Source: a virus. Taken from it: a DNA stretch of 64,000 bases. The notes under the pieces were generated by a model. The model did no database searches and was not told the origin of the DNA. It saw nothing but the letters and a program-made list of their open reading frames with translations. A program made the translations under genes and the position numbers. The stretch covers positions 1 to 64,000 of the IMG/VR virus record IMGVR_UViG_3300027969_000074, one strand, 5' to 3'. Each line of letters opens with the position of its first letter. Positions within the stretch are counted from its first letter, which is position 1. Of this stretch, positions 3,415-56,835 are shown piece after piece.

Positions 3415-3430
3415 AGTGTTTATTAAGATT

Positions 3431-5195: not shown

Positions 5196-5210
5196 AGTTA
5201 GATAGTTATT

Positions 5211-5654: not shown

Positions 5655-5671
5655 TGTTATTGATTTTCTTA

Positions 5672-5698: not shown

Positions 5699-5704
5699 AA
5701 CAGA

Positions 5705-6508: not shown

Positions 6509-6524
6509 AAAAATATAAAATAAA

Positions 6525-6842: not shown

Positions 6843-6857
6843 TTAAAGTTAACTTAA

Positions 6858-6888
6858 CAAAAAATAGCCCTAATAGGGCTATTTTTTT
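6858..6888. terminator. Bidirectional intrinsic terminator
   Basis: A7-TAGCCCTA-A-TAGGGCTA-T7 perfect inverted repeat between convergent genes. Confidence 0.85.
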
Positions 6889-6890
6889 GC

Positions 6891-7106
6891 TTAGTCGATA
6901 TCGTCTTGTCGACCATTTGTTATTTCCTTATAGTATTCCCAAAGTTCTTGGCAACCCTCATAATTTTCTTTATATTCTAAATATCCAATAACGGCAAGAA
7001 CCTCCTTCCAATAGCTTGAGGTAACACCTTTACGGTCAATATCTTTATACTTCTTGATCCATAGTTCTTCGTTTTCTATATAATCTCGCACCATCTTCAT
7101 ACTCAA
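6891..7106 (-). CDS. Small hypothetical protein with UVR-like ENYE.C motif
   Basis: YLEYKENYEGCQELW; overlaps the HDAC 3' end. Confidence 0.45.
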   Translation of the reverse strand: MSMKMVRDYIENEELWIKKYKDIDRKGVTSSYWKEVLAVIGYLEYKENYEGCQELWEYYKEITNGRQDDID

Positions 7107-8052: not shown

Positions 8053-8109
8053 ACTTAATATAATATACCATAAAAGCTTAGAGGCTTTCAACCGCATGTT
8101 ATATTACCA

Positions 8110-8835
8110 TTAATCTAAATCAGTTGGTTCATCCTTGAAAAATTTATCCAGTTTATCAAGATGATCAAATAGTTCAGCTGGGCCGATTGGATTAGCGGTT
8201 AAGTCAGACTTTTTAATTATATCAGTGGTAAAGCTATAAAGAACAAGTTCGCTTAATACAGTTCTCATAAAATCAAAGAAAGTCCAATCAGTTATTCCAC
8301 TAAATATTGCATCATCATTACGGGAGTCATCATCATAATATTCCAAAAAATCATCAATAACAATTTGGGTATTTAGCAATTGGTCAATTGTTATATCGTA
8401 AATGCTGTGCAACTCATCTTCTGCACCATCATCTTCTTCGTCAATCATCTCCAGGGCAAGTAGTGCTGGAAATGTGTATATTTTTGAGTCATCAACATCC
8501 GGCACTGGTTTTACTTGACCCATCCATAATAGGCAAATCGCGTCTATTTTAAGATCATGCGGTTCAGCCGGTCGACTTAATAATTCAGTAAATAGGTCTT
8601 CAACTTGAACGCCATTAAGATATGCAAGAAACACAAAATTTAATTGTTCAGCATATGGAGTTAAATTATTAATTATGTCCTTTAGCTTAACATTTTTTTC
8701 TATATGAACGTCGTACGGTAAGTACCACGTGATAGGTAAACTTGTATCAGCCATATTTCGGTCTATCCATTTTTCAGAAGTTTCATCCCAAAATGAAATT
8801 AGGATAGCTTGTTTAGTAAATGTGAGTTTCTGCAT
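8110..8835 (-). CDS. Acidic hypothetical protein
   Basis: 241-aa ORF with no recognisable motif. Confidence 0.55.
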   Translation of the reverse strand: MQKLTFTKQAILISFWDETSEKWIDRNMADTSLPITWYLPYDVHIEKNVKLKDIINNLTPYAEQLNFVFLAYLNGVQVEDLFTELLSRPAEPHDLKIDAICLLWMGQVKPVPDVDDSKIYTFPALLALEMIDEEDDGAEDELHSIYDITIDQLLNTQIVIDDFLEYYDDDSRNDDAIFSGITDWTFFDFMRTVLSELVLYSFTTDIIKKSDLTANPIGPAELFDHLDKLDKFFKDEPTDLD

Positions 8836-8918
8836 GATCTAGATCTTTTTAAGTATTCTACTATGGTTATCTAACCGGATTCAAGAATAAATAACTAAAA
8901 AGTATTTTTTATATAATT

Positions 8919-10883
8919 ATGGCAAAGTCTTTTATAGAAGCAATTAATGAATCGAATATTAATCAGGGTGGGCTAGTTGATGAAATGGGGGTTAAACGCC
9001 CTGAGCGATTAGCTGGAAGTCATATTGGTAGAGCTAGACAGGAAACAGTTACTCGTAGACAACAGCTTGCAAATCAGCCAGTTCGTAGAAGTTACTCAGA
9101 AGTTGCAGCAGATTTAACTCGTGCACTAAAACAGGTTCCTAGAATTGAGATTACAATGGAAAAGCCTAGTAATACCAGAGATTATTATCCAAGATTTCCA
9201 CAACCTATTGTTGATTTACTCAAGGAACTCAAGCAAATTGATGAAGGCCGAATGAAAGAGGATTTTGGTAAATGGAGAGACGTATATCCATCAGGTACGG
9301 CTGTTTATCTTAGAACTGAAGAGCCTAGCTCATTTCAACGCAGCCATTTCCCAAATGACGGAATTAGACCAGCTCTTAGAGGTACAGGCTTAGGTTACAA
9401 ATTGTACAGAACACTATTAAAATATGCAGGTTATATTTCATCAAATTCAAGCGGAACTACTGAAAAAGACAAAGCTTGGGGATCATTGTTGGACTATAAA
9501 GCAAATCCAGATGGAACGCCATCAGTTGATGATGCGCTAGCAATAATTGGTCCAGGAAGTTGGATGGCAATGGATAAAGGAATAAGTACTCAATCAAAAA
9601 TTGATGTAGCTGAGAGATTTATTGAACGCCAAATCGGATTTAATAACACAAAACCGGACAGATTTGATATTGACGATGAACTTCTTTCAATTCTACCTGA
9701 TACTTTTTTAACAAAGTTAGATGATGAGTACTTAGCGTCATTAGGTCGAGACGGCCGTATATCAAATGAGAGATTTAGCTCAATTAATGCAGCTAGATCA
9801 GAAGTGCAGCGTCTTGACAGAGAAAGAGCAGAGCGCCAAGCAATCGAAGATAGAGAGCGTAGAACTCGTGAAGAGGCTGAAACTCGACAACGCCTTGCTT
9901 CTCGTATTAGACAATTCGGCGCAGACCCAGATGCAGAATGGCAAGTTGGCGACTTTATTGTAGTTAAAAGCTACCTGTATGATGCAGGCTACGATAGCTT
10001 ACCAATTAGGCAAGTAGTTGATGTACGCAACGGGACTTATATTGCTGCTGGTATATCAGATGTTATTCGAATTGAAGCTGGCGAACGTACCCCAGGTGAT
10101 GCAAATGACACTCGGACAACTACTGATAAATCACAATGGGTTAAAGTAAATATTGAAAATATTCCTGATCTAGATAGAGTTAACCTAACCCCAGCCGGTA
10201 AACTCTTTATTCTTAATAGATTAAGCCCTGAAGTAGTTCAACAGCGTCGAGATGCGGAAGCTCAAGCAGAAAGAGAACGTATTGAAAGAGATCGTTCTCA
10301 AAATTTGGCCAGAACTGCAGACAAAGCCCTATTTGGTAAACTTGATTTTACTGGAGCTGAATTAAAACAGGCTGTTAATAATCGCCAAACCTTGGCGAAT
10401 CTTGACTTGCTTAAGAAAATCAGAACTGGTAATTTTGCAAAATTTGTAGTTCTAGCAGAACCTCAACAGGCCTCTCTTAGAGGAGCCGCTGGAGTTCCAG
10501 TATTTGTCGCGATTGAAAGACTAGGCAGAGCAACAAGGTCAGTTGAAAGCCCGCAGGAATTAATAAGTAATCCGCGTAATATTATGCTAGTTAATGTAGT
10601 TACTGGTAAAATGGTTGAAGGTCCATTTGTTGGAATGGGATTAATTGCACTAGGCCTTGAACCAGTTACAGAACAGGATAAATTAATGGCAAGAGCTGGA
10701 GATCACTACTATATCGCAAATCACCAAAACAATTGGGGTATTTTATCTAAATGCGATTATACAACCAGAAATACTGCAAATCAGCCGTTTATTTACTTAC
10801 GAACATTTGGTGGAGCTGAAAGACCTACTCCAGTTAGATTAGATCTTTTAAGAAAGATAACTGACAGGACTGAGATTGTCTAA
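8919..10883 (+). CDS. Large virion-internal protein with GNAT-like acetyl-CoA-binding domain and charged coiled coils
   Basis: MAKSFIEAINE leader; IRPALRGTGLGYKLY (motif A RxxGxG); ATAAATAA at 8887-8894. Confidence 0.6.
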   Translation: MAKSFIEAINESNINQGGLVDEMGVKRPERLAGSHIGRARQETVTRRQQLANQPVRRSYSEVAADLTRALKQVPRIEITMEKPSNTRDYYPRFPQPIVDLLKELKQIDEGRMKEDFGKWRDVYPSGTAVYLRTEEPSSFQRSHFPNDGIRPALRGTGLGYKLYRTLLKYAGYISSNSSGTTEKDKAWGSLLDYKANPDGTPSVDDALAIIGPGSWMAMDKGISTQSKIDVAERFIERQIGFNNTKPDRFDIDDELLSILPDTFLTKLDDEYLASLGRDGRISNERFSSINAARSEVQRLDRERAERQAIEDRERRTREEAETRQRLASRIRQFGADPDAEWQVGDFIVVKSYLYDAGYDSLPIRQVVDVRNGTYIAAGISDVIRIEAGERTPGDANDTRTTTDKSQWVKVNIENIPDLDRVNLTPAGKLFILNRLSPEVVQQRRDAEAQAERERIERDRSQNLARTADKALFGKLDFTGAELKQAVNNRQTLANLDLLKKIRTGNFAKFVVLAEPQQASLRGAAGVPVFVAIERLGRATRSVESPQELISNPRNIMLVNVVTGKMVEGPFVGMGLIALGLEPVTEQDKLMARAGDHYYIANHQNNWGILSKCDYTTRNTANQPFIYLRTFGGAERPTPVRLDLLRKITDRTEIV

Positions 10884-11632
10884 ATCACAATTGGCGGATT
10901 CTTTCGATAGAACTCTGCCAATCTTTCTCTGAATTTAAAATAGTATTCTCTCATTTCACTAGAGTCCATTCTAAAGTGTTGTGGAGCTAAGTTTAATTCG
11001 TTTGAAATCCAAATTCTACAAGTAACTGTCTTAACCTGCATACGGTCCCAAACTGCAACCGAATATGCTGCGACTTGGTGCTTATAATCTTCAATCCATT
11101 TTTCTTCCTTGGGTTTACGAGCGGTCTTAAAATCTACAATTGCATGGTCGCCAGTTATTAATTCAGAAACATTATCAACTGTGCCAGCAAATCCACCATC
11201 TCTAGCCGTCCATAAGAATCGCTCTTGAGCAATTACTCGTTTAATTTCGTCAAATGAATTTGATTTTATAAAATTATAGAAGAGCATGCCTCCCACAATT
11301 TTTGCCCGATTATCAAATTGATCAATTTCATCATCTATTCTGGCCAAGGACAAAGTGTCCTCAAGTCTGTCTTTTGCAGACATCGACTGCGGCAGATTAA
11401 GATAAATTTCGCATAACCGGTGCATCACAGTTCCTCGGTTAGCTGCATCTTGGCCGATTTGATCAGCTTTTTGGTGACCTATACGGTTTCTCCAAGCATC
11501 AAGTCCAGATTTATCAGAGGTATCTCCAAGTACAGAGGTTACACTTGGGAAAGTTCCAAGTATTCCAGTTGAGTCAGATACTTGATAGTATCGAAATCCA
11601 TTCAGCACAACTCGTTTAATTGATTCAGACAT
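10880..11632 (-). CDS. PD-(D/E)XK exonuclease (phage Cas4-like/MGME1-like)
   Basis: PSVTSVL, RGT.MH..CE, AGTVD, IVDFKT, Q.AAY. Confidence 0.85.
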   Translation of the reverse strand: MSESIKRVVLNGFRYYQVSDSTGILGTFPSVTSVLGDTSDKSGLDAWRNRIGHQKADQIGQDAANRGTVMHRLCEIYLNLPQSMSAKDRLEDTLSLARIDDEIDQFDNRAKIVGGMLFYNFIKSNSFDEIKRVIAQERFLWTARDGGFAGTVDNVSELITGDHAIVDFKTARKPKEEKWIEDYKHQVAAYSVAVWDRMQVKTVTCRIWISNELNLAPQHFRMDSSEMREYYFKFRERLAEFYRKNPPIVI

Positions 11633-13931: not shown

Positions 13932-15230
13932 TTAATTGGATAAAGGCGCTTTAATTGATTGATGTGATTGATAATTGCCTAATTGAATATCTTCCTCCAA
14001 TAAACACTTACAAAAATTATCATCAGTGAAATTATTAAATATTGAGATTGCCTCTATTGGGCCATCTTCAGTTTCTCTAGCCCAAAACTCAGTATTAATA
14101 TTTAAAGAAGGTAATTCAAACGGTACTCTACTATAATATGGAATCTTATAAATATCATAATATTCAGAAAGACCTCCGCCGAATGGCATTAGTTCAGCAA
14201 CCGCTGACTGGTACGCGACCGGTCCCATTGCATCTTTCAACATAGACCCCCGTTCTTCATGGTCATATTTTCTTCCAATTTGTTCTTTTGCTTGTTCAAT
14301 ATGATTTGAATATAAATGAGTATCACCTAAATTTCCTATCAATTCGTCAGGTACCATATTAACTGAAGTAGCAATGATTTCCAATAACAATCCATAAGAA
14401 GCAATATTGAATGGTAAACCTAAAAACGTATCTACTGAACGTTGATTCCACATTAAAGAGATTGCTCTTGTCGGTAAACGTAACTTGTCAGCCCATTCTT
14501 TTGTTAATATTCCATCTATATTTATCTTATAACCATAGTCTTCTCTTTCTTCCCAACTCAACTCTCTCGTATAAACTTGAAATCCATAATGACAAGGTGG
14601 GAGAACCATTTGGTTTAATTCACCCACATTCCAAGCACTAACCATCAATCGTCTTGAGTCTGGATTTGTTTTAAGGTCGTTGATTAGGTTTGCTATTTGG
14701 TCTATAGGTTCATGTAAGGTATATCCAGTATTGTCTCCACTGTAATCTACTATCATGTTATCAAAATTTACTTTGTTCCATTTTCTCCATTGCTTACCGT
14801 AAATTGAACCTAACTCCCCCCACTTCTTAGCAAACTCATCATCTGTTTTAATACGTTCAATAAATCCTTCTTTACTTAGAATATTGTAATCAGTTGCCTC
14901 TTTAAGTATACCCTCGTCAGTAGCTTTATCAATTGATAGCTTAACGGTCTTTTCATAATTCTTATATGCATCACCATCCCAAATATGACATCCGTTATCA
15001 ACTAAGAACTTGATATTAGTATCGCCACGTAGGAACCATAACAATTCAGTTACAATAGTTTTAAATGGCATCTTCTTAGTTGTAAGTAAAGGAAATCCTT
15101 CTGACATTTTGTGTCTGATTTGTCTTCCAAATACCGAAATCGTACCAGTTCCTGTTCTGTCAGATTTGGTTACTCCATTATCTAAAATATCTTGGAGTAG
15201 TGCTTGATATTGTTTATCTAAACTATTCAT
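13932..15230 (-). CDS. thyA: Thymidylate synthase with insertions
   Basis: DRTGTGT, ELLWFLRG, PDSRR, LPPCH, QRSVD.FLGLPFNIASY, DTHLY.NH. Confidence 0.96.
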   Translation of the reverse strand: MNSLDKQYQALLQDILDNGVTKSDRTGTGTISVFGRQIRHKMSEGFPLLTTKKMPFKTIVTELLWFLRGDTNIKFLVDNGCHIWDGDAYKNYEKTVKLSIDKATDEGILKEATDYNILSKEGFIERIKTDDEFAKKWGELGSIYGKQWRKWNKVNFDNMIVDYSGDNTGYTLHEPIDQIANLINDLKTNPDSRRLMVSAWNVGELNQMVLPPCHYGFQVYTRELSWEEREDYGYKINIDGILTKEWADKLRLPTRAISLMWNQRSVDTFLGLPFNIASYGLLLEIIATSVNMVPDELIGNLGDTHLYSNHIEQAKEQIGRKYDHEERGSMLKDAMGPVAYQSAVAELMPFGGGLSEYYDIYKIPYYSRVPFELPSLNINTEFWARETEDGPIEAISIFNNFTDDNFCKCLLEEDIQLGNYQSHQSIKAPLSN

Positions 15231-15747: not shown

Positions 15748-16554
15748 CTATGATTGTAGACTTGGAACCCAATGTGTTGTGCGACCGTCTGGTGTTTCTT
15801 CCCTAACCACTACATTGCCTAATGGATCCTGTTTTTGAGCATAGACTTCAAACTCAAAGGTAAAGTCGCCAGCTTCTCCATTTACTTGGCGATAATTTCT
15901 GATACTTGCTCCGCCTTGATCGTATGAAGCTTTCATTATTAATTTACCCCAATTCCATAATTGACAGATCTCATCTTGTGTTAAATCTTGCACCAATCGA
16001 TATGGAGATATTTTAGAGCGATAGAGCATTTCACATTTAATATAATTACCAATGCCAGCAAACAAGGACTGATTCATTAGTGCTTCTGCAACAGTTTTTT
16101 TCTGAACTTTAGGCAGTTCAACCTTTCTAACAAAATCATACATGCTGGAAGTTTGATCGTTTAACATGTCAAGCCCAAGGCTCTCCAATTTTTTTGAAAG
16201 CTCTGACTTCAGTGTGAACTTTAAGGTACCGAATCGGCGCTGATCAACAAAATACAGAGACGTACCATCCTCAAAACCTATTCGGAAATGGCTATGAGGC
16301 TTAAGGCCAGTTGACCAGTACCCGCTCATTCCCAGTGTTATCCAGAGGCATGTCTCGTCACTAAATTCCAGCCAGATGAATTTGCCCTTAACTCCACCGC
16401 CGGTCACACGGACTGGCACCGATGTTTTAACGTTAAGATCGGGAGCCCTTTTTAGGAAACGGCCACCTAGCACCTCAAATTGACTAATTGTTTTTGTTTT
16501 AGCGATTTCCGAGATTCCCTCGTAAACTCGTCTGCATTCCGGACCTTCTGGCAT
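15748..16554 (-). CDS. Fpg/Nei DNA glycosylase/AP lyase, zincless-finger type
   Basis: MPEGPE, KGKF, LGMSG, DQRRFG, H2TH AGIGNY..E; no Cys4 finger (GRTTHWVP..Q). Confidence 0.93.
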   Translation of the reverse strand: MPEGPECRRVYEGISEIAKTKTISQFEVLGGRFLKRAPDLNVKTSVPVRVTGGGVKGKFIWLEFSDETCLWITLGMSGYWSTGLKPHSHFRIGFEDGTSLYFVDQRRFGTLKFTLKSELSKKLESLGLDMLNDQTSSMYDFVRKVELPKVQKKTVAEALMNQSLFAGIGNYIKCEMLYRSKISPYRLVQDLTQDEICQLWNWGKLIMKASYDQGGASIRNYRQVNGEAGDFTFEFEVYAQKQDPLGNVVVREETPDGRTTHWVPSLQS

Positions 16555-20143: not shown

Positions 20144-20404
20144 TTACCACTTAGGTTCCTCGCCAATTTGATCTAGTGCGCAATGAAAGCCTACCAGTCT
20201 GGTCTTGGCCTCTAAGAAACAGCCACATATACCGCACTGGGTTAGGATCTCGCCAAAATGCGGACACTCTTTACAAATTGCCATTCGACGGTCTTTTTCT
20301 GTATCATTCACAAATACTTTATTCATGATTCTACTAAGCACAGTAGTTTGTGGAACTGGTTGGTTATTGCTGCAACCACAGCCTTGAGTTGTTTCGTCAG
20401 CCAT
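20144..20404 (-). CDS. Cys-rich metal-binding protein (DUF6171-like)
   Basis: R.AIC..C......C..CGCF..AK......C.....KW. Confidence 0.65.
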   Translation of the reverse strand: MADETTQGCGCSNNQPVPQTTVLSRIMNKVFVNDTEKDRRMAICKECPHFGEILTQCGICGCFLEAKTRLVGFHCALDQIGEEPKW

Positions 20405-21378
20405 TATGCTTCGATTTTTTCAAATAGTCTCTTATCGTCAAACTCTAAATAGCTTTCAAGTAAAGAGCTAAAACCTTCGCGATACTTAAGTACAGCTAAG
20501 TCTTTGGCCTTTGCCTCAATTTCAATATCTATTGCCTGACCATAATTATTTATTTGCTCATAAATGTAATCAGCATGAGACCTCGCAATTACGCTTGGAT
20601 CCTCGAATGTTTTTTTACTACTTGAATAATGAGTAAGCGGAGTATGGCCGTGCCAAGTGGTAGCAGCCAGCTTAAGCGCAGCCTCTTCAGTAAGATCACT
20701 AGTATTAAACCGGTGATGATGAAAATCAAAAGTAATAGGAGTACCTATTTCAAGATACACCAATTGATATAGATCGACTACTGAATATTGAGTAGCCTTA
20801 TCGTCATTTTCTACAACCAGCCTGGCTTTGGTATTTGGTTTAAGTAGTTGAAAATTCTCGCAAAAACGTTTAGCTGCTGCCGTTTTATCGCCATAAGTAC
20901 CGCCAATATGAATATTGATTGGGAAACCTACATTGGTTGGCAACTTCATAAGATCCATAATTTCGCAGTGCTGATCCAGATCCTTTACGGTTTTTGCAAC
21001 AACATCGGCTCTAGGAGAAGGCAAGACATCGAACTGGCCTGGGTGCATTGATACCCTGATATTATTTGCAACTGCAAACTTGCCAATCTCTTGCATGTCT
21101 GATAAAATTTCAGGAAAATGTGGCAGCATTTGAATTTCATATTCTGACATCCATGGAAAAATATCGCTTGACATTCTGTACACATAAATGCCATTGGCTA
21201 AATTCCATTCCAGAATTTTTAGAACATCTTTTATATTTTGATGTGCAAGCTCGGCACAATATTCAAGGCCCTTTTCCTGAAAGGTTTTACGGATCATACC
21301 TCGATTGGCTGTAATTTTTTGGTCGGCTAATGACAAGTTAATGCAACAATAACCCAAACGGACGTTAGTATCTTTCAT
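20404..21378 (-). CDS. uvsE: UV DNA damage endonuclease (UvsE/UVDE)
   Basis: LGYCC, YRMSS..FP, SMHPGQF, VENDD, FDFHHH, HADYI, EAKAK. Confidence 0.95.
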   Translation of the reverse strand: MKDTNVRLGYCCINLSLADQKITANRGMIRKTFQEKGLEYCAELAHQNIKDVLKILEWNLANGIYVYRMSSDIFPWMSEYEIQMLPHFPEILSDMQEIGKFAVANNIRVSMHPGQFDVLPSPRADVVAKTVKDLDQHCEIMDLMKLPTNVGFPINIHIGGTYGDKTAAAKRFCENFQLLKPNTKARLVVENDDKATQYSVVDLYQLVYLEIGTPITFDFHHHRFNTSDLTEEAALKLAATTWHGHTPLTHYSSSKKTFEDPSVIARSHADYIYEQINNYGQAIDIEIEAKAKDLAVLKYREGFSSLLESYLEFDDKRLFEKIEA

Positions 21379-21678: not shown

Positions 21679-22305
21679 TTAAAATTTGTTGGGTGATTGG
21701 TAACCATTCGTAACTGACCTGATGACTCTAACTACATCTAATGCATCCTGCAAAGCATCATGGGTTACTTCTCCAGATAGCTCGCATCGATCCATACATG
21801 TCTGTAAATTTGGTAAACTCTCGTCAGTGTGCCAGTCCATTAATAGAATAGCTGGATCCAGGATACGTTGCCTCATTTGAATTGAACTCATCCAGTTTGG
21901 AAGTTTCTGTAGAAATACTTTATCAAAACTTGCAAAGTTTTTACCGGCAACATTAATCTTTACACCACCAGTCGCTTCACATGGAAATCCGTTTGAGATT
22001 AACCACATTTGAAAAGATTTGGCAACAAGCCCGGCAGGTAAAATATTATGCTCTTTTCGATAGGCCAAACGCTCTTCCTTGGTTTTATTCTCAAGACCGC
22101 CAAGAATTTTTAAGATCCATGAATTTAATGAAAGCGCAAATGAACTTCCAGCATAAGCTTCATGTTCAATGATACACTGAAACTTAGGTAGCTGATCGTA
22201 AGGTACAGGCTTTTGAGTGTCTTCAATCACTGCACCGATTTGAAGAATTTGACAAGACTCTGGGTTAAGGCCAGTCGTCTCAATATCAATTGAAATATAT
22301 TTCAT
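21679..22305 (-). CDS. DEDDh 3'-5' exonuclease
   Basis: IDIETTG, N..SFD..FL, HDALQDA. Confidence 0.9.
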   Translation of the reverse strand: MKYISIDIETTGLNPESCQILQIGAVIEDTQKPVPYDQLPKFQCIIEHEAYAGSSFALSLNSWILKILGGLENKTKEERLAYRKEHNILPAGLVAKSFQMWLISNGFPCEATGGVKINVAGKNFASFDKVFLQKLPNWMSSIQMRQRILDPAILLMDWHTDESLPNLQTCMDRCELSGEVTHDALQDALDVVRVIRSVTNGYQSPNKF

Positions 22306-23225: not shown

Positions 23226-24515
23226 TTAAAATTCTCTCTTTTGACCGTGAACTGCTTTAAATACTGGAAATCTTAGTGAGTGAGCACCATGTTGATCAGT
23301 AGTTTCTTCAAAGAATTGTACAGTAATTGTTTTACCTAAAATTTCATTTGGGTTTTCGTGATAGTGTCGTCTTTGTTCAAGATTAAAGCCTGAACCTACT
23401 CTAACTGTATTACCTTTGTGTTCTACAATTACGGCTTTTAGCATAAGCTCTTCAACTTCTTTACCCATATCAATAATACGATTTACGTCAGATTCAAGAT
23501 CGATTACTACATATTCTGCATCATGCATCTTTTTAACCTTAAGTAGATTCTTTGAGCGCTTGCCTTCGTATCCAATATCCTTACGCATCATTACACCTTC
23601 ATAACCCATTTCAGTTGCATCAGCCACAATCTTTTCAAATTCCTCAATTGATTTTATTTGAAATTGGGGTAATGGTTCAGCATAGGTTAGGCCAGTTACA
23701 ATTGCATTTAAGATGATTAGTCGGGCTGAAAGAGAAACGTCTCCGGCTTGATTCCAAAATTCAGATGATTCTAAAAAATCAAACACATAATATTTTGGAT
23801 TCTGTATAGTATGGTTTTTTCTACCAATTTCTTTGATAACCCCCTGGAAATCTTCAAGTCCGCCAGGTTTCATAACGCAAACTTCTCCATCCAATACTTT
23901 ATTCTTTAATCCAAGCCTCTTAATATCTTGAGCCAAGATTGAAAGCGTTAAAAATTCGTTGCCAGCTCGTGAATAAAACTTAGGTTCGCCATGTTCGTCA
24001 ATTACGGTAATACAACGAACTCCATCAAGCTTACGACTTGCCCACCATTCTCCAGACTCAAAGTTTACCTTTTTTTCATTACCATCAAACTTCTCAGCTA
24101 GGGCAACATCAAATGTAGGTACTGTACCTGGCATTACTGAATTAATTAAGGTAGTAGTTGCTCTAGTCTTTAAGTTTCGGTCTATCACATCATAGATGAC
24201 CTCCGCGAACTCCTGATTTTTAGCAATAAAACCATTAACTACTTGAATAGCATTGTGACCTGTGATTAGCCTTGCATCCAGATCATTAAGTAAATCAAAT
24301 AGATCATCATAGTTATCAAAACTAAGATCCTGACGTTTCTTTAAATTATCTGAAGTAACATAATACTGTTTAAATGGAGAATAGACGTATTCAAACAGCT
24401 TACGTAATACTGGAGTATCGTAACGTTTAAGTATCTCTTTCTTATCGTTTGTTGAAGAAGTCGCTTTCATTTCGTCAATGAATTGTGCAACTAATTTAAA
24501 ATCTTGGTTTGTCAT
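23226..24515 (-). CDS. ATP-dependent DNA ligase
   Basis: KLDGVRC, LDGE, FD, EGVM.R, LLKVK, VGSGF, LRFP. Confidence 0.95.
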   Translation of the reverse strand: MTNQDFKLVAQFIDEMKATSSTNDKKEILKRYDTPVLRKLFEYVYSPFKQYYVTSDNLKKRQDLSFDNYDDLFDLLNDLDARLITGHNAIQVVNGFIAKNQEFAEVIYDVIDRNLKTRATTTLINSVMPGTVPTFDVALAEKFDGNEKKVNFESGEWWASRKLDGVRCITVIDEHGEPKFYSRAGNEFLTLSILAQDIKRLGLKNKVLDGEVCVMKPGGLEDFQGVIKEIGRKNHTIQNPKYYVFDFLESSEFWNQAGDVSLSARLIILNAIVTGLTYAEPLPQFQIKSIEEFEKIVADATEMGYEGVMMRKDIGYEGKRSKNLLKVKKMHDAEYVVIDLESDVNRIIDMGKEVEELMLKAVIVEHKGNTVRVGSGFNLEQRRHYHENPNEILGKTITVQFFEETTDQHGAHSLRFPVFKAVHGQKREF

Positions 24516-27995: not shown

Positions 27996-30371
27996 TTATG
28001 CAAAATTAAAAGTTTTAGTCCTAAATAAACCTTCATTAGTTGATTTACTTTGAGTCAATTTTAATTCAGGAGGATTTGCATTTTTTATTGATTCAATTGC
28101 GATTTTTTCAGCAGCGTCTGCTTCTTCTTGAGTAACAGTACCGTCCTTAACTAATTGTTGCAAACTATCATGTACTCTTGAAGTATCTTCCATATTTAAA
28201 CTAACCATACCTGTTTCAAAATCAAATACATCAGCAAAGGCTGCTCTAGTTGGAAGATCTTGAGAATTTAGTGCATGTTGAGCATCAATTGAATCGTCTA
28301 ATCCCATTGATCTTAAAATTTGTTTAGTATATTCAGTACTTTTCTTTTCAAACTCGGCTGCGGCTTTTGGATCATTTGCCATATTCGCAGTACCTCCAAG
28401 TAGAGCAGTTGAACCTGGGAAATTAGCACAATGGGCGCCGACCGTTGCTTTAACTACGTCAGTTATTAAATTACAATCGGTTTTACCAGCCTTGGCGGTT
28501 GCAGTCTTTACGATCTCATCGTTTTTCTTAATTACTGCTTCTACTTCAGAAGAAGCGGCGGTTTTTTCTGGATTAATAAATTCAGCTTGAGCGGAAGCCG
28601 CTTGATTTGCAGCTGCATTATTTGCATCTACTGTAGAATCTCCAGTAGATACTGAATCCTCTTCATTTAGAGCTGGCGATAATGCCGAACCTGCCAACTT
28701 AGTCGCTGAACTAGTTGCCATTTGCTTAATACACTCCAGGCTTCCATAGCGCTGGTATGCAAGTCTTGAAATAAAATTAAGTAGCCTTTTTAGAAATATT
28801 CCTCTAGTTGCAAGCGCGCCGCCTGCTTTAGTTAGTTTAGCTAATACATAAACAGTATCATCAAAGTTTTTAACACCTTGAATAAAAATTTCAGGTTTTG
28901 TTGCCCATGGAGTAAATGCTCTAACCTCAGCTTTTGATAAATTTTTAGCAACCGCTGGATCAGTCAGCATTGTTTTAAATACTTTGCGAATATCATCAGC
29001 CTTTGCGTCTTTTGCAAGTTGAGTAATATATTCGCCACTAGGTTTCCATCCATACTTATTTGCAAAATATTCTGCTAATTTTGGATCCTTTTTAACAATT
29101 TGATCAATTGCATCAACTGATGCGCCAATTAATTCATTTTCAACCTTTGCCGCTTTTGCTACTTGTTGTAGAGATTCAGGTTGACCTGCAATTGAGGCCA
29201 TGAATTTTTTATCTTGTTCAACAGCCTTTAGTAAATCAGCTGAATACCCTCCTTCTTTTGCATAAGCCGTAATTACAGCTGGATCAAAATCTTTATAGGC
29301 AGTTGAATTAAGAATAGCCTTTCCTTGTGGACTAGTTGCAGCATATTCAACTCCCTTTTTAGAAACTACGGTATCTGCTAATTTATCAGCGCCTTTTGCA
29401 ATTTCCTTTTTAGTAGTTTCTTCACCTAACAACTTCGCAGCCGTTTCAAAATTACGACCAAATATCTTAAGTTGAGCTTCAAGTCCAAGTCTTTCAAATG
29501 CCTGTACAGCTTTTACTCCGTATTTTCCAACAATTGGAACTAAATTAAATACTGTTTTTATAAAATTAGTAACAAATTTAAGTACGCCAACTGCAACTGT
29601 TCCAAAAAAGTTAGCAACTCCTTTAAGTAACGAAGCAATTATTCCAGAAATACTCTTATCGCCTAGCGTTCTAATTCCGTTCTTTAGTGCAAGAACTGCT
29701 GGCCCAACTTCAGTTGCCGAACTTCCAGTCCTGCATAGAATTTTGGTTAATTTTTCAAGTAGACCAAGAACCGGCTTAGGTAAAAATTTAATAGTTTTTA
29801 AGAAATTTGAAGTTTTAGTAACATCGATTGCTGCGATTACGCTAAGTATCATTGATACATATTCGCCCTTATATAAAGAAATGATAGCTGATAAGATATT
29901 TGCAACTACATCAATTGGAAATCCAGCCCAAGTAAATGGAACAATTCCAATTACATCTAGTACTAATCTTAGAATATTTAGACCCATTTCGGTTGGATCC
30001 GGATCCGCAACTAGGGCTTTTACAAAGTTCATAACTGAACTCATTACGCCTTCGTTAATTAATTGGACAGTATGTAGGTATGATTCATTAAGTCGAAGCT
30101 TAATTGTATCGTATCCCTGTCTAACCAAAAAGTCCTCCTTTTTGATAATATCGTTAATATCTTCAAAATTTTCAAGTAAAAAAACTTGATGCTCAAAGAT
30201 TTCTTCTTCTGAATGGTTAGGCGTTCTAGGTTTACTTAATTTGCTAAAGTCAACTGCATCTAGGGCAGTCCAAAAAGACTCAGGAATACTCTCAAAATAT
30301 TGAATCAGTTTTTCATTAACTGGTTCAGCTCCGTGATTAAAGTACTGGTCTGCTGAAATTACATATCTCAT
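27996..30371 (-). CDS. Large helical virion-internal protein with pre-toxin-like hydrophobic segment
   Basis: 791 aa; repeated VNE/LNE/INE sites; LDVIGIVP...D.....LYKGEY..M.LS; late motif at 30395-30402. Confidence 0.55.
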   Translation of the reverse strand: MRYVISADQYFNHGAEPVNEKLIQYFESIPESFWTALDAVDFSKLSKPRTPNHSEEEIFEHQVFLLENFEDINDIIKKEDFLVRQGYDTIKLRLNESYLHTVQLINEGVMSSVMNFVKALVADPDPTEMGLNILRLVLDVIGIVPFTWAGFPIDVVANILSAIISLYKGEYVSMILSVIAAIDVTKTSNFLKTIKFLPKPVLGLLEKLTKILCRTGSSATEVGPAVLALKNGIRTLGDKSISGIIASLLKGVANFFGTVAVGVLKFVTNFIKTVFNLVPIVGKYGVKAVQAFERLGLEAQLKIFGRNFETAAKLLGEETTKKEIAKGADKLADTVVSKKGVEYAATSPQGKAILNSTAYKDFDPAVITAYAKEGGYSADLLKAVEQDKKFMASIAGQPESLQQVAKAAKVENELIGASVDAIDQIVKKDPKLAEYFANKYGWKPSGEYITQLAKDAKADDIRKVFKTMLTDPAVAKNLSKAEVRAFTPWATKPEIFIQGVKNFDDTVYVLAKLTKAGGALATRGIFLKRLLNFISRLAYQRYGSLECIKQMATSSATKLAGSALSPALNEEDSVSTGDSTVDANNAAANQAASAQAEFINPEKTAASSEVEAVIKKNDEIVKTATAKAGKTDCNLITDVVKATVGAHCANFPGSTALLGGTANMANDPKAAAEFEKKSTEYTKQILRSMGLDDSIDAQHALNSQDLPTRAAFADVFDFETGMVSLNMEDTSRVHDSLQQLVKDGTVTQEEADAAEKIAIESIKNANPPELKLTQSKSTNEGLFRTKTFNFA

Positions 30372-30417: not shown

Positions 30418-31482
30418 TTAAAGTGAATCCGCAATCTGGCGTAATATTTTAAAATAGTCACCAGTTGAACAATCTGATAGAAATTTACAAATCTCAAAGA
30501 AATCATCAACTGTATCAAACGACATGGCTGGATGAAATCTTGGATCTTTATACGAAACTGGAATTGTTCCAAATATAACAGATTCATAAACTCTAGCTGG
30601 AATGAACTTTTCTTTTAGATAGAGATCTTTGCTTACATTTATTGAAACTTGAGACATTTGCATGTCTACCCAGATTGCTTCACGATTTCCTCTTGGGCAA
30701 AGAGCAACCCGGTTCATTGTATCAATCCAGCTTTCTAGCGTTGAGGTACTCTTTGCCGCAACTGTCATATTAAATGAACTTCCATCAAATTTACAGGTAC
30801 TATCAATTGCAGAAATAATGTCATTAATTATTGGATTCTTGGAATGACCTTCTTTGTAATTATCAAATGATAGGTTTCCATAATATATTAAATGATTTAA
30901 AACTTTATTTGCATGGGCTTGGTGTACGTCTAAACATGCATTCATAAAGCCTTTACTACAACCTGGAATTGTAATTGATGGAATCTCTATAGAAATGCCT
31001 AATTCATTTAATTTAACAAGAAACGCATGTGATAATGAAAGATCTGTATCTAATATAACAATATCTGCTGCTTCATAACCTGACTCTAGCGCAATATAGA
31101 TAATGGTTTCAAAATAAGCTGCATCCTTTAATTTCTTTTCAAGTGTGGAAAGATTACGGAATCGAGCTTTTAAAAATAATTTTGAATATTCTTTATTTTT
31201 AATAGCCTCAAATACTGTGGATTGATGTAATCTATAGTTATCAATTAATTTATCTGCAAATTGATTAAATACTTTGCCCAATTGATCGTCTGGGAAGCTA
31301 GGTCGACTTGCGAGATTAACCATTCCAGTATCTAAATAATTTACAAAATCAAATTTATCAATTTCATATTGATTAGCCAATTCATCTAATAAACCTAATT
31401 GATAAAATGTGTGTCCTGGAATATTTTCATTAAATATTCCTAGTTCGCCAAAATATGCATAGAGTGCTTTTTTCTTTTCCAT
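30418..31482 (-). CDS. GT-B glycosyltransferase resembling T4 DNA beta-glucosyltransferase
   Basis: LIYYGN and K.LY...FIPARVYES...G.IP parallel BGT IYGG and KNY..NFITLRVWET as recalled. Confidence 0.55.
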   Translation of the reverse strand: MEKKKALYAYFGELGIFNENIPGHTFYQLGLLDELANQYEIDKFDFVNYLDTGMVNLASRPSFPDDQLGKVFNQFADKLIDNYRLHQSTVFEAIKNKEYSKLFLKARFRNLSTLEKKLKDAAYFETIIYIALESGYEAADIVILDTDLSLSHAFLVKLNELGISIEIPSITIPGCSKGFMNACLDVHQAHANKVLNHLIYYGNLSFDNYKEGHSKNPIINDIISAIDSTCKFDGSSFNMTVAAKSTSTLESWIDTMNRVALCPRGNREAIWVDMQMSQVSINVSKDLYLKEKFIPARVYESVIFGTIPVSYKDPRFHPAMSFDTVDDFFEICKFLSDCSTGDYFKILRQIADSL

Positions 31483-31859
31483 AATACGTATTTTACTAGA
31501 ACTCCGTCATTTGGTTCTATGTCAAGTCTATTATTGTAAAAAATATCCCAAGAATCTGCAGCATATTGACCAATTCCATATAGTTCCCTAGGATGTTTCC
31601 AATCGCGATCAATCCATTCAGTGCTAAATCGGATTAATGATTTGGCTCGACGATTATAAAAACCAAGTGGACGAAGTAGTTCTGCTAATTCTTGAGGATC
31701 TGCCTGCGACATCATTGCCGCCGTTGGATACTTATCGAAGAGTTCAGATCTAATTCCGTCCACTTGTACTCGTCTAGTACAATTTAAGAGAATGCAACAA
31801 ACTTGAGATTTCCATGGGTCACCATGATAAATCTCTTGAAGTAATTCAAATGGGCTCAT
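31440..31859 (-). CDS. MBD4-like HhH-GPD DNA glycosylase (catalytic domain only)
   Basis: DPW....CILLN.T; KYP; ELLRPLG.Y..RAK; W..P.EL.GIG.Y..DS..IF; P.D..L.KY..W with catalytic Asp. Confidence 0.88.
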   Translation of the reverse strand: MSPFELLQEIYHGDPWKSQVCCILLNCTRRVQVDGIRSELFDKYPTAAMMSQADPQELAELLRPLGFYNRRAKSLIRFSTEWIDRDWKHPRELYGIGQYAADSWDIFYNNRLDIEPNDGVLVKYVLWKRKKHSMHILAN

Positions 31860-32672
31860 TTACACATTTTTAAAGCCGGCAAAATGAGTAATAAAATGCT
31901 TTCCATTTATTGTACGTGGATTAACAAATAATTGCCCAAAGTTTGCTCTAAAAATATCAAGGATTTCAGTAAATTTAGCTGAGCGATTTTCCAATAACCA
32001 ACTATAATGAAAATGGTATTCAACAATAAAAAGTCTGATTTGATCTAGGCTTTCTTGGTTTAGTGCCTTAATCATATCGTATTCTAATCCTTCAATGTCC
32101 ATCTTGATGGCTGTGATACCCTTTTCTTTAATAATAGTGTTTATATTCTCAGCAGGTACAGTCGTAACCTGACGACCTCTAATGTGATGCACACTGTGCT
32201 TTCCAGAGTCTTGAGATAGGTAAAATTCTACTTCAGACGAATCGTCTGCAACAATTGCCTTTTCAATAATTTCACAACGATCTTGAACGCCATTCATTTG
32301 AACATTTTGTTCTAGGAACTCCACGTTATTATGGAAAGGTTCATATGAATAGACTTTCTTTACTTTTGGAAATTGAGTTAGTAAACGAGTTGCAAAAATA
32401 CCAATATGGCCTCCTGCGTCTAACCAAGTATCTTCATGATTTAGATCTTCAAGATTTAATGGACCTCCATTTTGCGCATAGTGCGGTATGAATAGAGGTT
32501 TAAAATATTCACCACCCGTAGGTTTAGTTGAAATATTTTGTGATACATTAAATTTGATCTCTTCCTCAGACCTAACCAAAAATTGATAATCGTGATATTT
32601 GGTTTTCTTTTCAAAAACCTGAAGGGTTCCATTTTGTCGAGCCTCTTCAATCGAGCATAATACGTCTGCCAT
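31860..32672 (-). CDS. FkbM-family SAM-dependent methyltransferase
   Basis: LDAGGHIGIF, YEP...N, KMDIEG.E, VEYH. Confidence 0.88.
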   Translation of the reverse strand: MADVLCSIEEARQNGTLQVFEKKTKYHDYQFLVRSEEEIKFNVSQNISTKPTGGEYFKPLFIPHYAQNGGPLNLEDLNHEDTWLDAGGHIGIFATRLLTQFPKVKKVYSYEPFHNNVEFLEQNVQMNGVQDRCEIIEKAIVADDSSEVEFYLSQDSGKHSVHHIRGRQVTTVPAENINTIIKEKGITAIKMDIEGLEYDMIKALNQESLDQIRLFIVEYHFHYSWLLENRSAKFTEILDIFRANFGQLFVNPRTINGKHFITHFAGFKNV

Positions 32673-32707
32673 TTATAAATGTTTATTTAGACTAATTATA
32701 CTACAGT

Positions 32708-32998
32708 TTATAAGCTTTGGTCTACGTTAACGTCTTTTTGTTTAATTAAAAGTTCGTCTGGATTTTCAGGATTAGGGCCAGCAGTTTGATAATTGTCATA
32801 TCGACTAGGCTCAGCCTTTTCAATCTCATCAGATTTGACTGATTGGACTTTATTATCAGAGCCCATAATCTTATAAGTTTTAGTAATAGGATCAACTCCA
32901 ATAATTTTGGCAGTATGACCTGATTTTAACATGACCTCTTGGCCAGTTATGTATTTAGAAGAAGTAGCTGAAACTAAAGTAATATCTTCCGACTCACT
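32708..32998 (-). CDS. SH3/KOW-like module, probably the -1 frameshift extension of 32998..34536
   Basis: Frame stays open upstream of ATG 32932 through the A9 run: SLSESEDITLVSATSSKYITGQEVMLKSG. Confidence 0.55.
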   Translation of the reverse strand, partial: SESEDITLVSATSSKYITGQEVMLKSGHTAKIIGVDPITKTYKIMGSDNKVQSVKSDEIEKAEPSRYDNYQTAGPNPENPDELLIKQKDVNVDQSL

Positions 32999-34536
32999 TA
33001 AGCTTTTTTTTTGGATTGATCAACTACAATATACTGACTTTTAAGAGCATTTACGTTTTTCTCGATAGATACTTTAAGTTCAGTTAATTTTTCTTGATAT
33101 TCAGCAGTAAGGCTAGAGTCAGATAGAGCTTCTTCAATTTGAGAAATAGATGCTTCTAATTTAGCAAGATTTTCTTCAATTGTTTTCTTTTCAATATCAA
33201 ATGCTTTAATATTAGCGTCTCTCTCTTCTAATTCAATTGAGTACATTTCGCTAATATCGTATTTAAAGTTCTCCATAACATAGCTATGGAAAGTTAAACC
33301 TTTCATTTTCTTAACAATTCTGGTTTCTCCAAGTTTTTCAAATACAAAAATATCTTCACCTAAGTTAAGAACAATTGAATCTCTTCCAAGTCTTTCATTA
33401 ATAATGGTTTTTCCAAACTCAAGATTAACAACTAGATCTAAATTATTAAACAATTTAGAAAGAGCATTACGGGTTTCAATTGTTTCCATTAAGAAAATCT
33501 CAGACAATTTAATATTGTTAATATTTTCAATAATTGAGTTATTGATTTTTAAATTTAGAGTACCGTTTTCATTAATACCAAATGATACGGTTAAATTTCT
33601 ACATTTAGCCACTAGTTCAGTGCTGTGTTCTTTAAAATTTAAAGTTGCAAAAGCTTCACAAGTTTCAAAAAACTCTGGAAATTCTTTAACTTCTTCAGCT
33701 GCCATTTGAGATGGATCTGAATCTTCAGATACTTTGATAAATTTGTTATCAACAAAAACGATTGCATCGCTTTCGCTAATTTTATAGAATGGTGCAATAA
33801 TTGGTTTTACTTGTGAATCACTATTGCCAATTCCTAAATTAAAGCCGCCAGTAGTTTTTGACTCTAACATGCTAATTTTGTTAATCAATTGATTAACTAC
33901 CGGCAATTGAGAGTGTGAACGCAATTTCATTTTTAATGAATCAGCAGTTTCAATATTTTCAAGTAGAGCCTCTTCTAGTAAAGCACATGCGTCCTTATAA
34001 AGAATTGCACCAGTAACTCGCATTTCATAAATTGAGTTTAAGATTTCAAGTTTTACCGAATTAGTATTTACGTATTCAATAAGAGATTCTAAAATAGTTG
34101 AAACTGTCTTATCATAAGAGAATTTAGATAACCCATTAAAAAAGAAGGTTAGTGCTCTATATTCTGGCATTGATGCAACTGCTTCTTCTAGTCGAGCAAC
34201 TGTGTGTTTAACTACAGGATCTGCATAAATTTCGCTTTCCTTTAAAGCTTTAAGTTTTAAAGAAAGACCTGCTTCGCTAGCCATATTTTGAAGACGCTTA
34301 GTTGGTTTGTCCGCCATCTTTTTGAATTTAGCAACTACTTCTTTAAGATTTTCGTTTACTAGTTCATTAGCAAATTGCTCTAATGTGTTTAGAGAATTTT
34401 CTAAAATTTGATCAGGAGAAACTCCCAAAAGTAATGAGTTATTAATTGATTCTAATACGACCTTTGCGGCGATATTAGAGCTTATGCTCGAATTATTTTT
34501 GAGCTCGTTAGTTAGTTCTTGTATGAGACCGTTCAT
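32998..34536 (-). CDS. Prohead core/scaffold-like structural protein
   Basis: Many (L/I/V)xE sites, C-terminal coiled coil, three tandem late motifs upstream. Confidence 0.5.
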   Translation of the reverse strand: MNGLIQELTNELKNNSSISSNIAAKVVLESINNSLLLGVSPDQILENSLNTLEQFANELVNENLKEVVAKFKKMADKPTKRLQNMASEAGLSLKLKALKESEIYADPVVKHTVARLEEAVASMPEYRALTFFFNGLSKFSYDKTVSTILESLIEYVNTNSVKLEILNSIYEMRVTGAILYKDACALLEEALLENIETADSLKMKLRSHSQLPVVNQLINKISMLESKTTGGFNLGIGNSDSQVKPIIAPFYKISESDAIVFVDNKFIKVSEDSDPSQMAAEEVKEFPEFFETCEAFATLNFKEHSTELVAKCRNLTVSFGINENGTLNLKINNSIIENINNIKLSEIFLMETIETRNALSKLFNNLDLVVNLEFGKTIINERLGRDSIVLNLGEDIFVFEKLGETRIVKKMKGLTFHSYVMENFKYDISEMYSIELEERDANIKAFDIEKKTIEENLAKLEASISQIEEALSDSSLTAEYQEKLTELKVSIEKNVNALKSQYIVVDQSKKKA

Positions 34537-34556: not shown

Positions 34557-34613
34557 TTATTTATCAGCTTTTGTTGCTAAATTTATTTATCTGGTACTTG
34601 TACAGTTATTTAT
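34557..34613 (-). promoter_or_regulatory. Three tandem late-type GATAAATAA promoters
   Basis: TTATTTAT(C) at 34557-34564, 34583-34590 and 34606-34613. Confidence 0.7.
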
Positions 34614-34660
34614 CTTAACTCGGTTTAATTTAATGAAATTTACGAATATCGGTTGATACT

Positions 34661-49318: not shown

Positions 49319-49383
49319 TTAAGGAGTAGCTTCTTTTAGGTTATTTATCAGCAGAGTAAAACGTTTATGAAAGAGACCACCTG

Positions 49384-55487: not shown

Positions 55488-55490
55488 TTA

Positions 55491-56123: not shown

Positions 56124-56130
56124 AGTTAAT

Positions 56131-56826: not shown

Positions 56827-56835
56827 ACCGTTTAG

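Follow-up and report, generated by a model that had tools for sequence, protein, structure and literature searches.

The DNA considered here is a window of 64,000 nucleotides (nt), the first 64 kb of the 89,057-bp IMG/VR virus record IMGVR_UViG_3300027969_000074, whose completeness is 33% (CheckV); related phage records extend up to 250-271 kb. On its minus strand the window carries a cassette of three genes, encoding an FkbM-type methyltransferase, an MBD4-type DNA glycosylase and a predicted glycosyltransferase (GT) of the GT-B fold, which is examined here as a candidate DNA-modification unit. The cassette occupies a slot between conserved genes for a protein of 512 amino acids (aa), p512, and one of 791 aa, p791. 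The features at the locus are, in order of coordinates:

27996-30371 (-): 791-aa protein (p791), downstream boundary of the slot, with the late-like motif GAATAAATAA before it; no family match
30418-31482 (-): predicted GT-B glycosyltransferase gene, open reading frame (ORF) of 354 aa
31440-31859 (-): MBD4-type glycosylase gene, ORF of 139 aa
31860-32672 (-): FkbM methyltransferase gene, ORF of 270 aa
32695-32703 (-): promoter-like motif TAGTATAAT, with 22 nt between it and the FkbM start
32708-32932 (-): 74-aa ORF (p74) of no known family, upstream boundary of the slot
32998-34536 (-): conserved 512-aa protein (p512), bounding the slot upstream, syntenic across about 150 loci; no family match

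A first-pass annotation, made from the sequence without database searches, had described three coupled minus-strand ORFs behind one promoter-like motif, and both parts of that description hold at the same coordinates. The TAA stop of the FkbM gene abuts the ATG of the glycosylase gene (GTG TAA ATG), the glycosylase and GT ORFs overlap by 43 nt (31440-31482), and no terminator-like site was seen inside the trio. The start of the GT gene is backed by conservation, with relatives aligning to residues 1-354 and a consensus of MExxKALYAYFGELG. Regarding the motif, the 9-mer TAGTATAAT occurs six times in the window against 1.6 copies expected, a number reached in 0 of 100 shuffles. Each of the six copies stands on the minus strand immediately 5' of a gene or operon (those of ThyA, UvdE and DNA ligase, two small ORFs and the FkbM-MBD4-GT cassette), and no other site in the region resembles a sigma-70 promoter as closely as the copy at 32695-32703 (10 of 12 matches). 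A MotA-box-like element before the TAGTATAAT sites was considered and rejected, as no consistent element was present.

A second, late-like promoter-like motif, GATAAATAA, is distinct from the TAGTATAAT class and occurs 10 times in the window (2.9 expected). Motifs of this type precede p512, p791, the baseplate wedge gene and many small genes; the promoter-like motif of the cassette is shared with the ThyA operon, UvdE and the ligase, and the genes flanking the cassette carry a different motif. Copies of GATAAATAA include:

34557-34614 (-): late-like copies upstream of p512
49341-49349 (-): single copy
472-480 (+): single copy

The earlier placement of the cassette between late structural genes stands in so far as both flanking genes follow a late-like GATAAATAA-type motif, but neither flank matches any family. 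For p512, searches of Pfam, PHROG and cultured phages returned no family and no counterpart, and for the neighbouring gene p647 the ESM Atlas gave no usable match and Flavobacterium phage MaF61 supplied no functional name. A match to MaF61 hints at freshwater Bacteroidota as possible hosts.

The first protein of the cassette is an FkbM methyltransferase, as had been proposed, with scores above the curated Pfam and NCBIfam cut-offs: PF05050 was matched with an E-value of 7.7e-13 and 49.4 bits (cut-off 22.7), TIGR01444 with 1.8e-21 and 77.1 bits (cut-off 37.7), and phrog_8156 with 9e-19. No solved structural relative was found. FkbM enzymes are O-methyltransferases of sugars and macrolides. The nearest homologues in cultured phages (about 30% identity) were those of MED4-117, where the gene lies between a DNA methylase and a TGT-like gene, and of HTVC112P, where it lies beside a ParB-like gene; these neighbourhoods weakly support a DNA-linked FkbM. 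In Cyanophage MED4-117 (locus L263) the FkbM-like gene, at 3887-4588, is labelled 'hypothetical protein', and the gene on its far side from the DNA methylase is queuine tRNA-ribosyltransferase-like, a DNA-modification neighbourhood.

Residues 2-133 of the second protein align with the mammalian MBD4 catalytic domain (E 5e-30; PDB 4ew4, 1ngn and 4evv), in agreement with the likeness along its length that had been noted, and the protein matches PF00730 (HhH-GPD) with 38.5 bits against a cut-off of 26.2. In the helix-hairpin-helix (HhH) its GIGQY pairs with GIGKY of MBD4. The aspartate of its PND motif, whose retention had also been pointed out, pairs with Asp534, the sole D/N difference between the otherwise identical chains 4ew4 and 4evv; Asp534 of mouse MBD4 is catalytic, and the D534N exchange abolishes activity (PMC3458566). 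The enzyme lacks the iron-sulfur (Fe-S) cluster loop of EndoIII, MutY and Mig, again as first described: it has three cysteines only, all within residues 21-27, and its C-terminus lies 19 residues past the catalytic aspartate. It consists of the catalytic domain, with no methyl-CpG-binding domain. A search confined to proteins of 76-244 aa found 387 relatives, and those listed measure 83-233 aa.

Residues of the glycosylase were numbered through alignment to those named in PMC3458566. Gln423, Tyr514, Asp534, Leu440, Asn441 and Leu480 (mouse numbering) are kept; Gln423 and Tyr514 hydrogen-bond the O2 and N3-H of the flipped thymine or 5-hydroxymethyluracil (5hmU) in MBD4 (PMC3458566), an enzyme that excises uracil, thymine and 5hmU opposite guanine (PMC3458566, PMC3479182). 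Since the two uracil-reading residues are kept, the phage enzyme should recognise uracil-type bases, not cytosines, with a pocket that differs from that of MBD4 on the C5 side, and judged by its conserved residues it probably excises such bases (5hmU, T, U) opposite G. The glycosylase had been assigned either to repair or to a step of the modification pathway; these residues fit the former, but nothing supports the latter.

The third protein, the GT, gave no usable match in Pfam, PHROG, NCBIfam or the sequences of the PDB (the last searched with a family profile), and DNA and protein searches with the GT and the 3-kb region found nothing in cultured phages. Its relatives, all of them unnamed, number more than 226 when clustered at 90% identity, and an exhaustive profile search yielded no more than 58 clusters at 50%. 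An AlphaFold (AF2) model from 41 sequences had a predicted local distance difference test score (pLDDT) of 91.2 and a predicted template modelling score (pTM) of 0.90, with strand and helix alternating in two halves. The model yielded 195 Foldseek matches in the PDB at E-values of at most 0.001 and 588 chains at Z scores of at least 8, and nearly all of the structural matches listed were GT-B enzymes or UDP-GlcNAc 2-epimerases of GT-B fold. On the strength of this model, the third protein is a GT-B glycosyltransferase.

Among the structural neighbours, Z was 17.4 for TarM and for the BH4 glucosyltransferase, 16.5 for BshA, 16.0 for the T4 beta-glucosyltransferase (BGT) and 15.0 for the T4 alpha-glucosyltransferase (AGT). 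Superposition on T4 BGT (1qkj) gave, at that Z score of 16.0, a root mean square deviation of 4.2 Å over 276 residues, with generic GT4 enzymes scoring equal or higher, up to 17.4. The best PDB neighbours were 3mbo (BshA), 5ze7/5zfk (BH4 glucosyltransferase), 6kih, 7fg9/8x3q, 7qsg and 2gej. These entries also head the structural neighbours listed in Table 1 of PMC13326640 for the DNA glycosyltransferases of the phages DLP3, RB69 and RL38J1, enzymes that have in part been confirmed by experiment, and the fold therefore cannot argue against DNA as the acceptor either. Membership of the GT4 group was not indicated by sequence: the GT had no Pfam hit to Glycos_transf_1 (PF00534, PF13692), one of 18 distant family members had a sub-threshold match to PF13524 (E 0.0015), and the position eight before E300, where the GT4 motif E-x7-E would have its first residue, is not a conserved glutamate in the family. 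In the ESM Atlas all feature neighbours of the GT were viral, and the nearest named clusters carry PF09198 (0.95 and 0.94), which is a lead, not proof.

The gene order p647 - p512 - (p74) - FkbM - [MBD4] - GT - p791 is kept down to 38% GT identity, as determined from 80 IMG/VR loci in a synteny scan for which the GT served as seed. After dereplication, upstream sequence was intact in 60 loci; these comprised 31 with FkbM and GT, 24 with the full trio, three with MBD4 and GT and two in which the GT stands alone. This makes the GT the constant member of the cassette, FkbM a nearly constant one, adjoining the GT in 55 of the 60 loci (92%) down to the same 38% identity, and the glycosylase an optional one (45%). 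The expectation that the trio would recur together is borne out for the order FkbM and GT, which is widespread, but not for the trio as an obligate unit, the glycosylase being missing from 55% of the loci. The pairwise divergences of the three genes correlate (Spearman 0.80-0.88 over 24 dereplicated trio loci); relatedness inflates such correlations, which consequently show co-inheritance, not co-function. Given this co-variation, the glycosylase is an old resident that was lost repeatedly, not a recently spreading mobile gene.

At the glycosylase, the window differs from loci L002 and L010 by a clean indel of about 390 nt. In those two loci, around 5975-6000, a 25-nt spacer with its own GAGTATAAT stands before the GT start, and the homologous bases of the window (31440-31859) encode the C-terminus of the glycosylase. 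In other lineages the junction between FkbM and GT holds unrelated small ORFs.

The contents of the slot in sister phages were determined in a scan seeded with distant p512 homologues, which gave 78 loci. Eight of these lack FkbM, MBD4 and a GT of the window type and have a homologue of a T4-type GT downstream of p647-p512 instead. In five (L114-L118) it is a T4 BGT homologue (tblastn E 3e-12 to 5e-15), with 32-34 bits on PF09198 against a cut-off of 27 in those scanned (L114-L116) and with a p791-like gene downstream in L116-L118. In the other three (L120, L121 and L127) it is a T4 AGT homologue (E 2e-29 to 3e-48), for which L120 and L127, the two scanned, scored 112 bits on PF11440. The genomic context thus favours DNA as the acceptor of the GT. 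Other genes were noted beside these homologues. Locus L114 has next to its BGT homologue, at 8138-9034 (+), an adenylosuccinate-synthetase-like gene of 298 aa (PF00709, E 4e-25), which may be a PurZ-like enzyme of another DNA-base pathway, and small DUF6378 proteins are encoded just upstream of the T4-type GT homologues at 7860-8159 in L116 and at 3364-3795 in L121.

A pathway to 5-hydroxymethylcytosine (5hmC) was found in the relatives of the window phage. A second gene of the thymidylate synthase (TS) family (about 296 aa) is present in all eight related records that are at least 70% complete, representing four or five lineages, and in one further record at 46%. The best PDB matches of its product were MilA CMP hydroxymethylase (9e-18) and T4 gp42 (1e-13, 27% identity), ahead of true TS. 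In its motif MRSND...PTD it has an aspartate at E. coli position 177, which is an asparagine in TS, and keeps Asp169, the residue whose presence marks an enzyme that is not a 5-hydroxycytosine (5hoC) synthase (criterion of PMC13326640). The combination of Asp177 and Asp169 points to a cytosine-specific hydroxymethylase, not a 5hoC synthase; on the same criterion, 5hoC as the primed base was judged less likely. The relatives have a T4-like replication module of gp56-like, gp43-like, UvsX, gp41-like, gp47-like and gp46-like genes, the hydroxymethylase and a dCMP deaminase-like ORF, in which the gp42-like gene adjoins the deaminase-like ORF and the gp46-like gene. A homologue of T4 gp56 (dCTPase) was present in three of three near-complete genomes tested (E 1e-21 to 1e-23). 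In five related records, three of them near-complete, nothing scored above the cut-offs of PF09198 or PF11440 in a profile search run without a positive control, the hits in sister contigs having come from another tool. The hydroxymethylase was not found in the five fragments with a BGT homologue in the slot; these and the window's own record are 8-36% complete, so that its absence from them is uninformative.

The first-pass annotation had placed the enzyme that primes the base outside the window, and this proved correct, since the TS homologue of the window is a true thymidylate synthase:

13932-15230 (-): ThyA, TIGR03284 307 bits, Asn177 kept

As a candidate priming enzyme this homologue was rejected on account of its ThyA equivalog score and the asparagine. 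The protein has 432 aa and, compared with solved thymidylate synthases, contains two extra segments, one following about residue 223 and the other about residue 321; it is otherwise a bona fide TS.

Outside the slot, glycosylases of the same family recur near genes of cytosine modification. Close homologues in cultured phages were found only in the Xp12 group (36-39% identity over 92%, E about 1e-19; e.g., Xp12 QNN97216.1). In Xp12 itself (L101) the MBD4-like gene is unannotated, at 5917-6399, two genes upstream of a TS homologue with an aspartate at position 177 and with a dCMP deaminase nearby. In Xp12 DNA, 5-methylcytosine (5mC) replaces cytosine (PMC8670742), so that T:G would be the mismatch left for repair. 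The glycosylase family also served as seed for a set of 79 viral contigs, which were scanned for cytosine-pathway markers within 5 kb; outside the slot, six contigs had the glycosylase 1.5-4.6 kb from a gp42-like gene, and in four a gp56-like gene lay about 4.3 kb away. No such marker lay within that distance in about 35 marine MBD4-like loci, and the association of the glycosylase with modified cytosine is therefore recurrent, not universal. A link between phage MBD4-like enzymes and modified cytosine was not found in the literature searched.

Two of the scanned loci deserve separate mention. In the marine contigs represented by L205 (3995-4753 and 8503-9660) the MBD4-like gene adjoins a peptide deformylase gene, near a DruA-like (Druantia) protein, with no cytosine markers within 5 kb. 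In L256, a T4-like contig of 260 kb, the stretch 1338-8584 (+) encodes a gp23 capsid protein, an RmlC-like epimerase, an MBD4-like protein (4971-5390), a 98-aa ORF, a 361-aa protein, a TS-family hydroxymethylase-like protein and a DUF707 protein, which may be a second, independent cluster of glycosylase, GT and hydroxymethylase. The 361-aa protein showed no relation to the GT family of the window and a weak match to the N-domain of BGT (hhalign probability 22%).

Taken together, the cassette is read, with a rough probability of 0.6, as serving DNA modification in a T4-like jumbo phage whose cytosine is replaced by 5hmC. The unnamed GT sits where sister phages keep T4-type GTs, and so most likely sugar-coats the 5hmC of phage DNA; that DNA is the acceptor of this orphan GT-B is considered probable. 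The proposed attachment of a sugar to a modified base gains from the GT-B fold, from the slot shared with T4-type GTs and from the 5hmC pathway of the relatives, but not from homology to BGT.

From the genes, families, fold, synteny and co-occurrences that were observed, the following chemistry is inferred. A gp56-like dCTPase and a gp42-like dCMP hydroxymethylase, encoded elsewhere in the genome outside the record, as the relatives suggest, would make DNA that contains 5hmC. The orphan GT-B would then move a sugar from a nucleotide sugar onto the hydroxymethyl group, in place of the T4-type alpha- and beta-glucosyltransferases, and FkbM would O-methylate that sugar or another hydroxyl of the modified base. 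The last step is suggested by gene adjacency alone and is put forward tentatively. Where present, the optional MBD4-type enzyme would flip out and excise 5hmU, T and U opposite G, the deamination products of 5hmC, 5mC and C, respectively, after which base excision repair, for which the window encodes the phage's own ligase, would restore the modified cytosine. It is conceivable, at a level well short of even odds, that GT and FkbM together write an O-methylated sugar on 5hmC and that the MBD4-type enzyme is a dedicated proof-reader of T and 5hmU in phages with C5-substituted cytosine. An O-methylated sugar on 5hmC has not been reported as a DNA base in the literature searched.

Several observations weigh against this reading and are collected in this and the following paragraphs. 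Regarding the pathway, the search for a dCMP hydroxymethylase beyond the window succeeded in the relatives, but neither this enzyme nor a dCTPase was found in the window's own 89-kb record (33% complete). As that record has ThyA as its TS, 5hmC is deduced from relatives whose GTs are 41-73% identical, and the co-occurrence of GT and hydroxymethylase among them is confounded by shared ancestry. Regarding the FkbM gene, no report of a methylated sugar on DNA was found, and the name 'FkbM' is absent from the DNA-glycosylation papers examined (PMC13326640; Pyle et al., bioRxiv 10.1101/2023.12.21.572611).

Regarding the GT, the GT-B fold does not reveal the acceptor and does not single out BGT. Comparison of single sequences by hhalign gave probabilities of 0.4-2% against T4 BGT and AGT (0.4% for BGT), and profile-profile comparison with 31 PF09198-type proteins gave 0.9% and 1.2%, the distant branch of the family included, with alignments that were collinear over 249-295 columns. 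There was no PF09198 hit for the GT or for 18 distant family members. In view of the hhalign probabilities, the claim that the GT is homologous to BGT was abandoned. What is left of the label 'BGT-like' is the fold, the language-model features and one short motif, and the suggested check of the protein against T4 BGT gave a match in fold (Z 16.0) but a probability of about 1% in sequence. The motif is FIPARVYE, for which T4 BGT contains FITLRVWE; no alignment program pairs the two significantly. R297 and E300 of the GT (in PARVYE) are invariant and resemble the RVWE of T4 BGT, where the arginine and glutamate of the LRVWE segment presumably bind uridine diphosphate in the C-terminal domain.

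Regarding the glycosylase, the gene is present in 27 of the 60 dereplicated loci (45%), and the 55% without it include the four closest relatives (GT 87-92% and FkbM 96-99% identical). Two residues of MBD4 that are changed in the protein also count here: the Arg442 finger is replaced by cysteine, and Lys536, which stacks on the flipped base and contacts the hydroxyl of 5hmU (PMC3458566), by valine. In addition, the wedge residue Leu482 is phenylalanine. The glycosylase family has an invariant arginine three residues after the finger position, at the position of Gly445, and this might substitute for the Arg442 finger. The altered residues on the C5 side of the pocket (Gly445 to invariant Arg, Lys536 to Val, Arg442 to Cys) could also suit an offensive or pathway enzyme, one that excises bases from host or unmodified DNA or serves as quality control of mis-modified bases. 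DNA glycosylases do take part in phage-host conflict, on the host side, as in the case of Brig1 (PMC11078745). Against such a role, the retained Gln423 and Tyr514 argue for U, T and 5hmU as substrates, not cytosines, over half of the loci do without the gene, and nothing indicates excision of normal bases; it is regarded as very improbable.

Regarding the slot, it behaves as a plasticity hotspot, which also holds unrelated small ORFs and the adenylosuccinate-synthetase-like gene, so that the position shared with T4-type GTs could be coincidence. One alternative does without any common function: accessory genes would accumulate after p512, with a GT that targets a small molecule, a lipid or a precursor of the host envelope, an FkbM enzyme with some unrelated substrate and a glycosylase for general G:T and G:U repair. 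The content of the slot does vary (MBD4, five other unrelated small ORFs, the adenylosuccinate-synthetase-like gene, DUF6378 or nothing), and the nearest relative of FkbM differs from that of GT and MBD4, which indicates a recombination breakpoint between them. General repair would be in keeping with the Fpg/Nei, UvdE, ligase and exonuclease genes that the window also encodes, and with the roughly 35 marine loci lacking cytosine markers within 5 kb. The explanation is nevertheless held to be improbable, since FkbM is found with the GT in 55 of 60 dereplicated loci, even where GT identity falls to 38%, the divergences of the three genes are correlated, their starts and stops abut or overlap, and those alternative occupants of the slot that have a known function are DNA- or nucleotide-modification genes.

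A further alternative is that FkbM and the GT-B build a methylated glycan on virion proteins, either the products of the flanking late genes or giant fibres, thereby adding to a second glycosylation locus of the phage, and that the MBD4-like gene is an unrelated repair gene which came to lie between them by chance. Virion O-glycosylation by phage GTs is known in actinobacteriophages. The position of the cassette between two genes with the late-like GATAAATAA motif is compatible with this, and elsewhere in this genome a large, separate locus for fibre glycosylation encodes a fusion of GT4 and FkbM of its own as well as three methyltransferase-domain proteins, because of which protein glycosylation remains a rival to DNA modification:

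52713-59646 (-): fibre-glycosylation locus, encoding a 924-aa protein whose N-terminal part is a methyltransferase domain, two Methyltransf_24 proteins and a 936-aa fusion of GT4 and FkbM

Giant proteins of 2432-3192 aa adjoin this locus, together with which they span 52713-89057 of the record, and a TAGTATAAT-like motif also precedes the gene at 87402-88355 beside giant proteins. The FkbM of the cassette is 30% identical to the FkbM domain of the fibre locus, fusions of FkbM and GT exist among viral proteins, and about 65% of phage GT contigs have no neighbouring base-modification enzyme (Pyle et al.). Other evidence speaks for DNA: bona fide homologues of T4-type DNA GTs occupy exactly this slot in sister phages; a DNA glycosylase is translationally coupled between FkbM and GT and co-diverges with both; the ThyA, UvdE and ligase genes have the same promoter motif as the cassette; and the nearest named ESM clusters carry PF09198, not GT4. 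The N-terminal (acceptor) domain of the GT is, moreover, highly conserved, whereas the flanking proteins, the would-be substrates, diverge to 22-30% identity. On balance, glycosylation of virion proteins is considered unlikely, and modification of phage DNA is preferred.

The proposed modification unit resembles several known systems in part. With the glucosyl-5hmC system of T4 it has in common that gp56-like and gp42-like enzymes are encoded within the T4-like replication module of near-complete relatives, that the GT shares the GT-B fold of BGT and AGT (Z 16.0 and 15.0) and is of similar length (354 against 351 aa), that it has the short motif F-I-x-x-R-V-[YW]-E of BGT, and that T4-type GT homologues occur in the same slot in sisters. 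It differs in that the GT has no detectable sequence homology to the T4 enzymes and is paired with FkbM and often with an MBD4-type glycosylase, neither of which is found beside the T4 GT genes; in the T4-like relatives the GT is not adjacent to the hydroxymethylase. The GTs of DLP3, RB69 and RL38J1, which make arabinosyl or hexosyl 5hoC (PMC13326640), and the GT-B/ThyS clusters of Pyle et al. are likewise orphan GT4-like GT-B enzymes with the same PDB neighbours, and those systems depend on a TS homologue that installs a hydroxyl on cytosine nucleotides, as predicted for the relatives of the window phage. Unlike the enzymes of DLP3, RB69 and RL38J1, the TS homologue of these relatives keeps Asp169 and should make 5hmC, not 5hoC; in contrast to both sets of systems, there are no sugar-nucleotide biosynthesis genes beside the GT of the window, and FkbM enzymes are mentioned in neither paper.

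Regarding the glycosylase, mammalian MBD4 is similar in the collinear residues 2-133, the G-I-G hairpin, the catalytic Asp534 and the lack of an Fe-S cluster, whereas the window enzyme is phage-encoded, stands alone with 139 aa and no methyl-CpG-binding domain, and has changes at Arg442, Lys536, Leu482 and Gly445. The MBD4-like proteins of the Xp12 group resemble it in belonging to phages with fully C5-modified cytosine and in being encoded near a TS homologue and a dCMP deaminase. The DNA of Xp12, in contrast, carries 5mC, not a glycosylated base, and no GT or FkbM gene lies near the Xp12 gene.

Two other observations concern the remainder of the window. Its set of repair and nuclease genes is unusually full:

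2600-3298 (+): non-specific endonuclease
10880-11632 (-): PD-(D/E)XK nuclease
15748-16554 (-): Fpg/Nei glycosylase
20404-21378 (-): UvdE UV endonuclease
21679-22305 (-): RNase_T-like exonuclease
23226-24515 (-): ATP-dependent DNA ligase

In addition, the ORF at 7045-8097 (-) encodes a 350-aa protein that matches the histone deacetylase domain (PF00850) with an E-value of 9e-17, a surprising finding for a phage.

Sugar-modified cytosine is a main route by which phages escape restriction enzymes and CRISPR nucleases, and host enzymes recognise the exact sugar, as shown by the host glycosylase Brig1, which excises alpha-glucosyl-5hmC (PMC11078745). If the reading given here is correct, the place of the T4-type glucosyltransferases has been taken by an unnamed GT family in a widespread group of environmental phages of 250-270 kb, and the members of this family would be new DNA-writing enzymes and candidate tools for labelling 5hmC. 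The partner methyltransferase could add a second, so far undescribed layer of disguise, and the recurrence of MBD4-type glycosylases with modified cytosine suggests that such DNA bears a mutational cost of deamination and has a matching repair enzyme.

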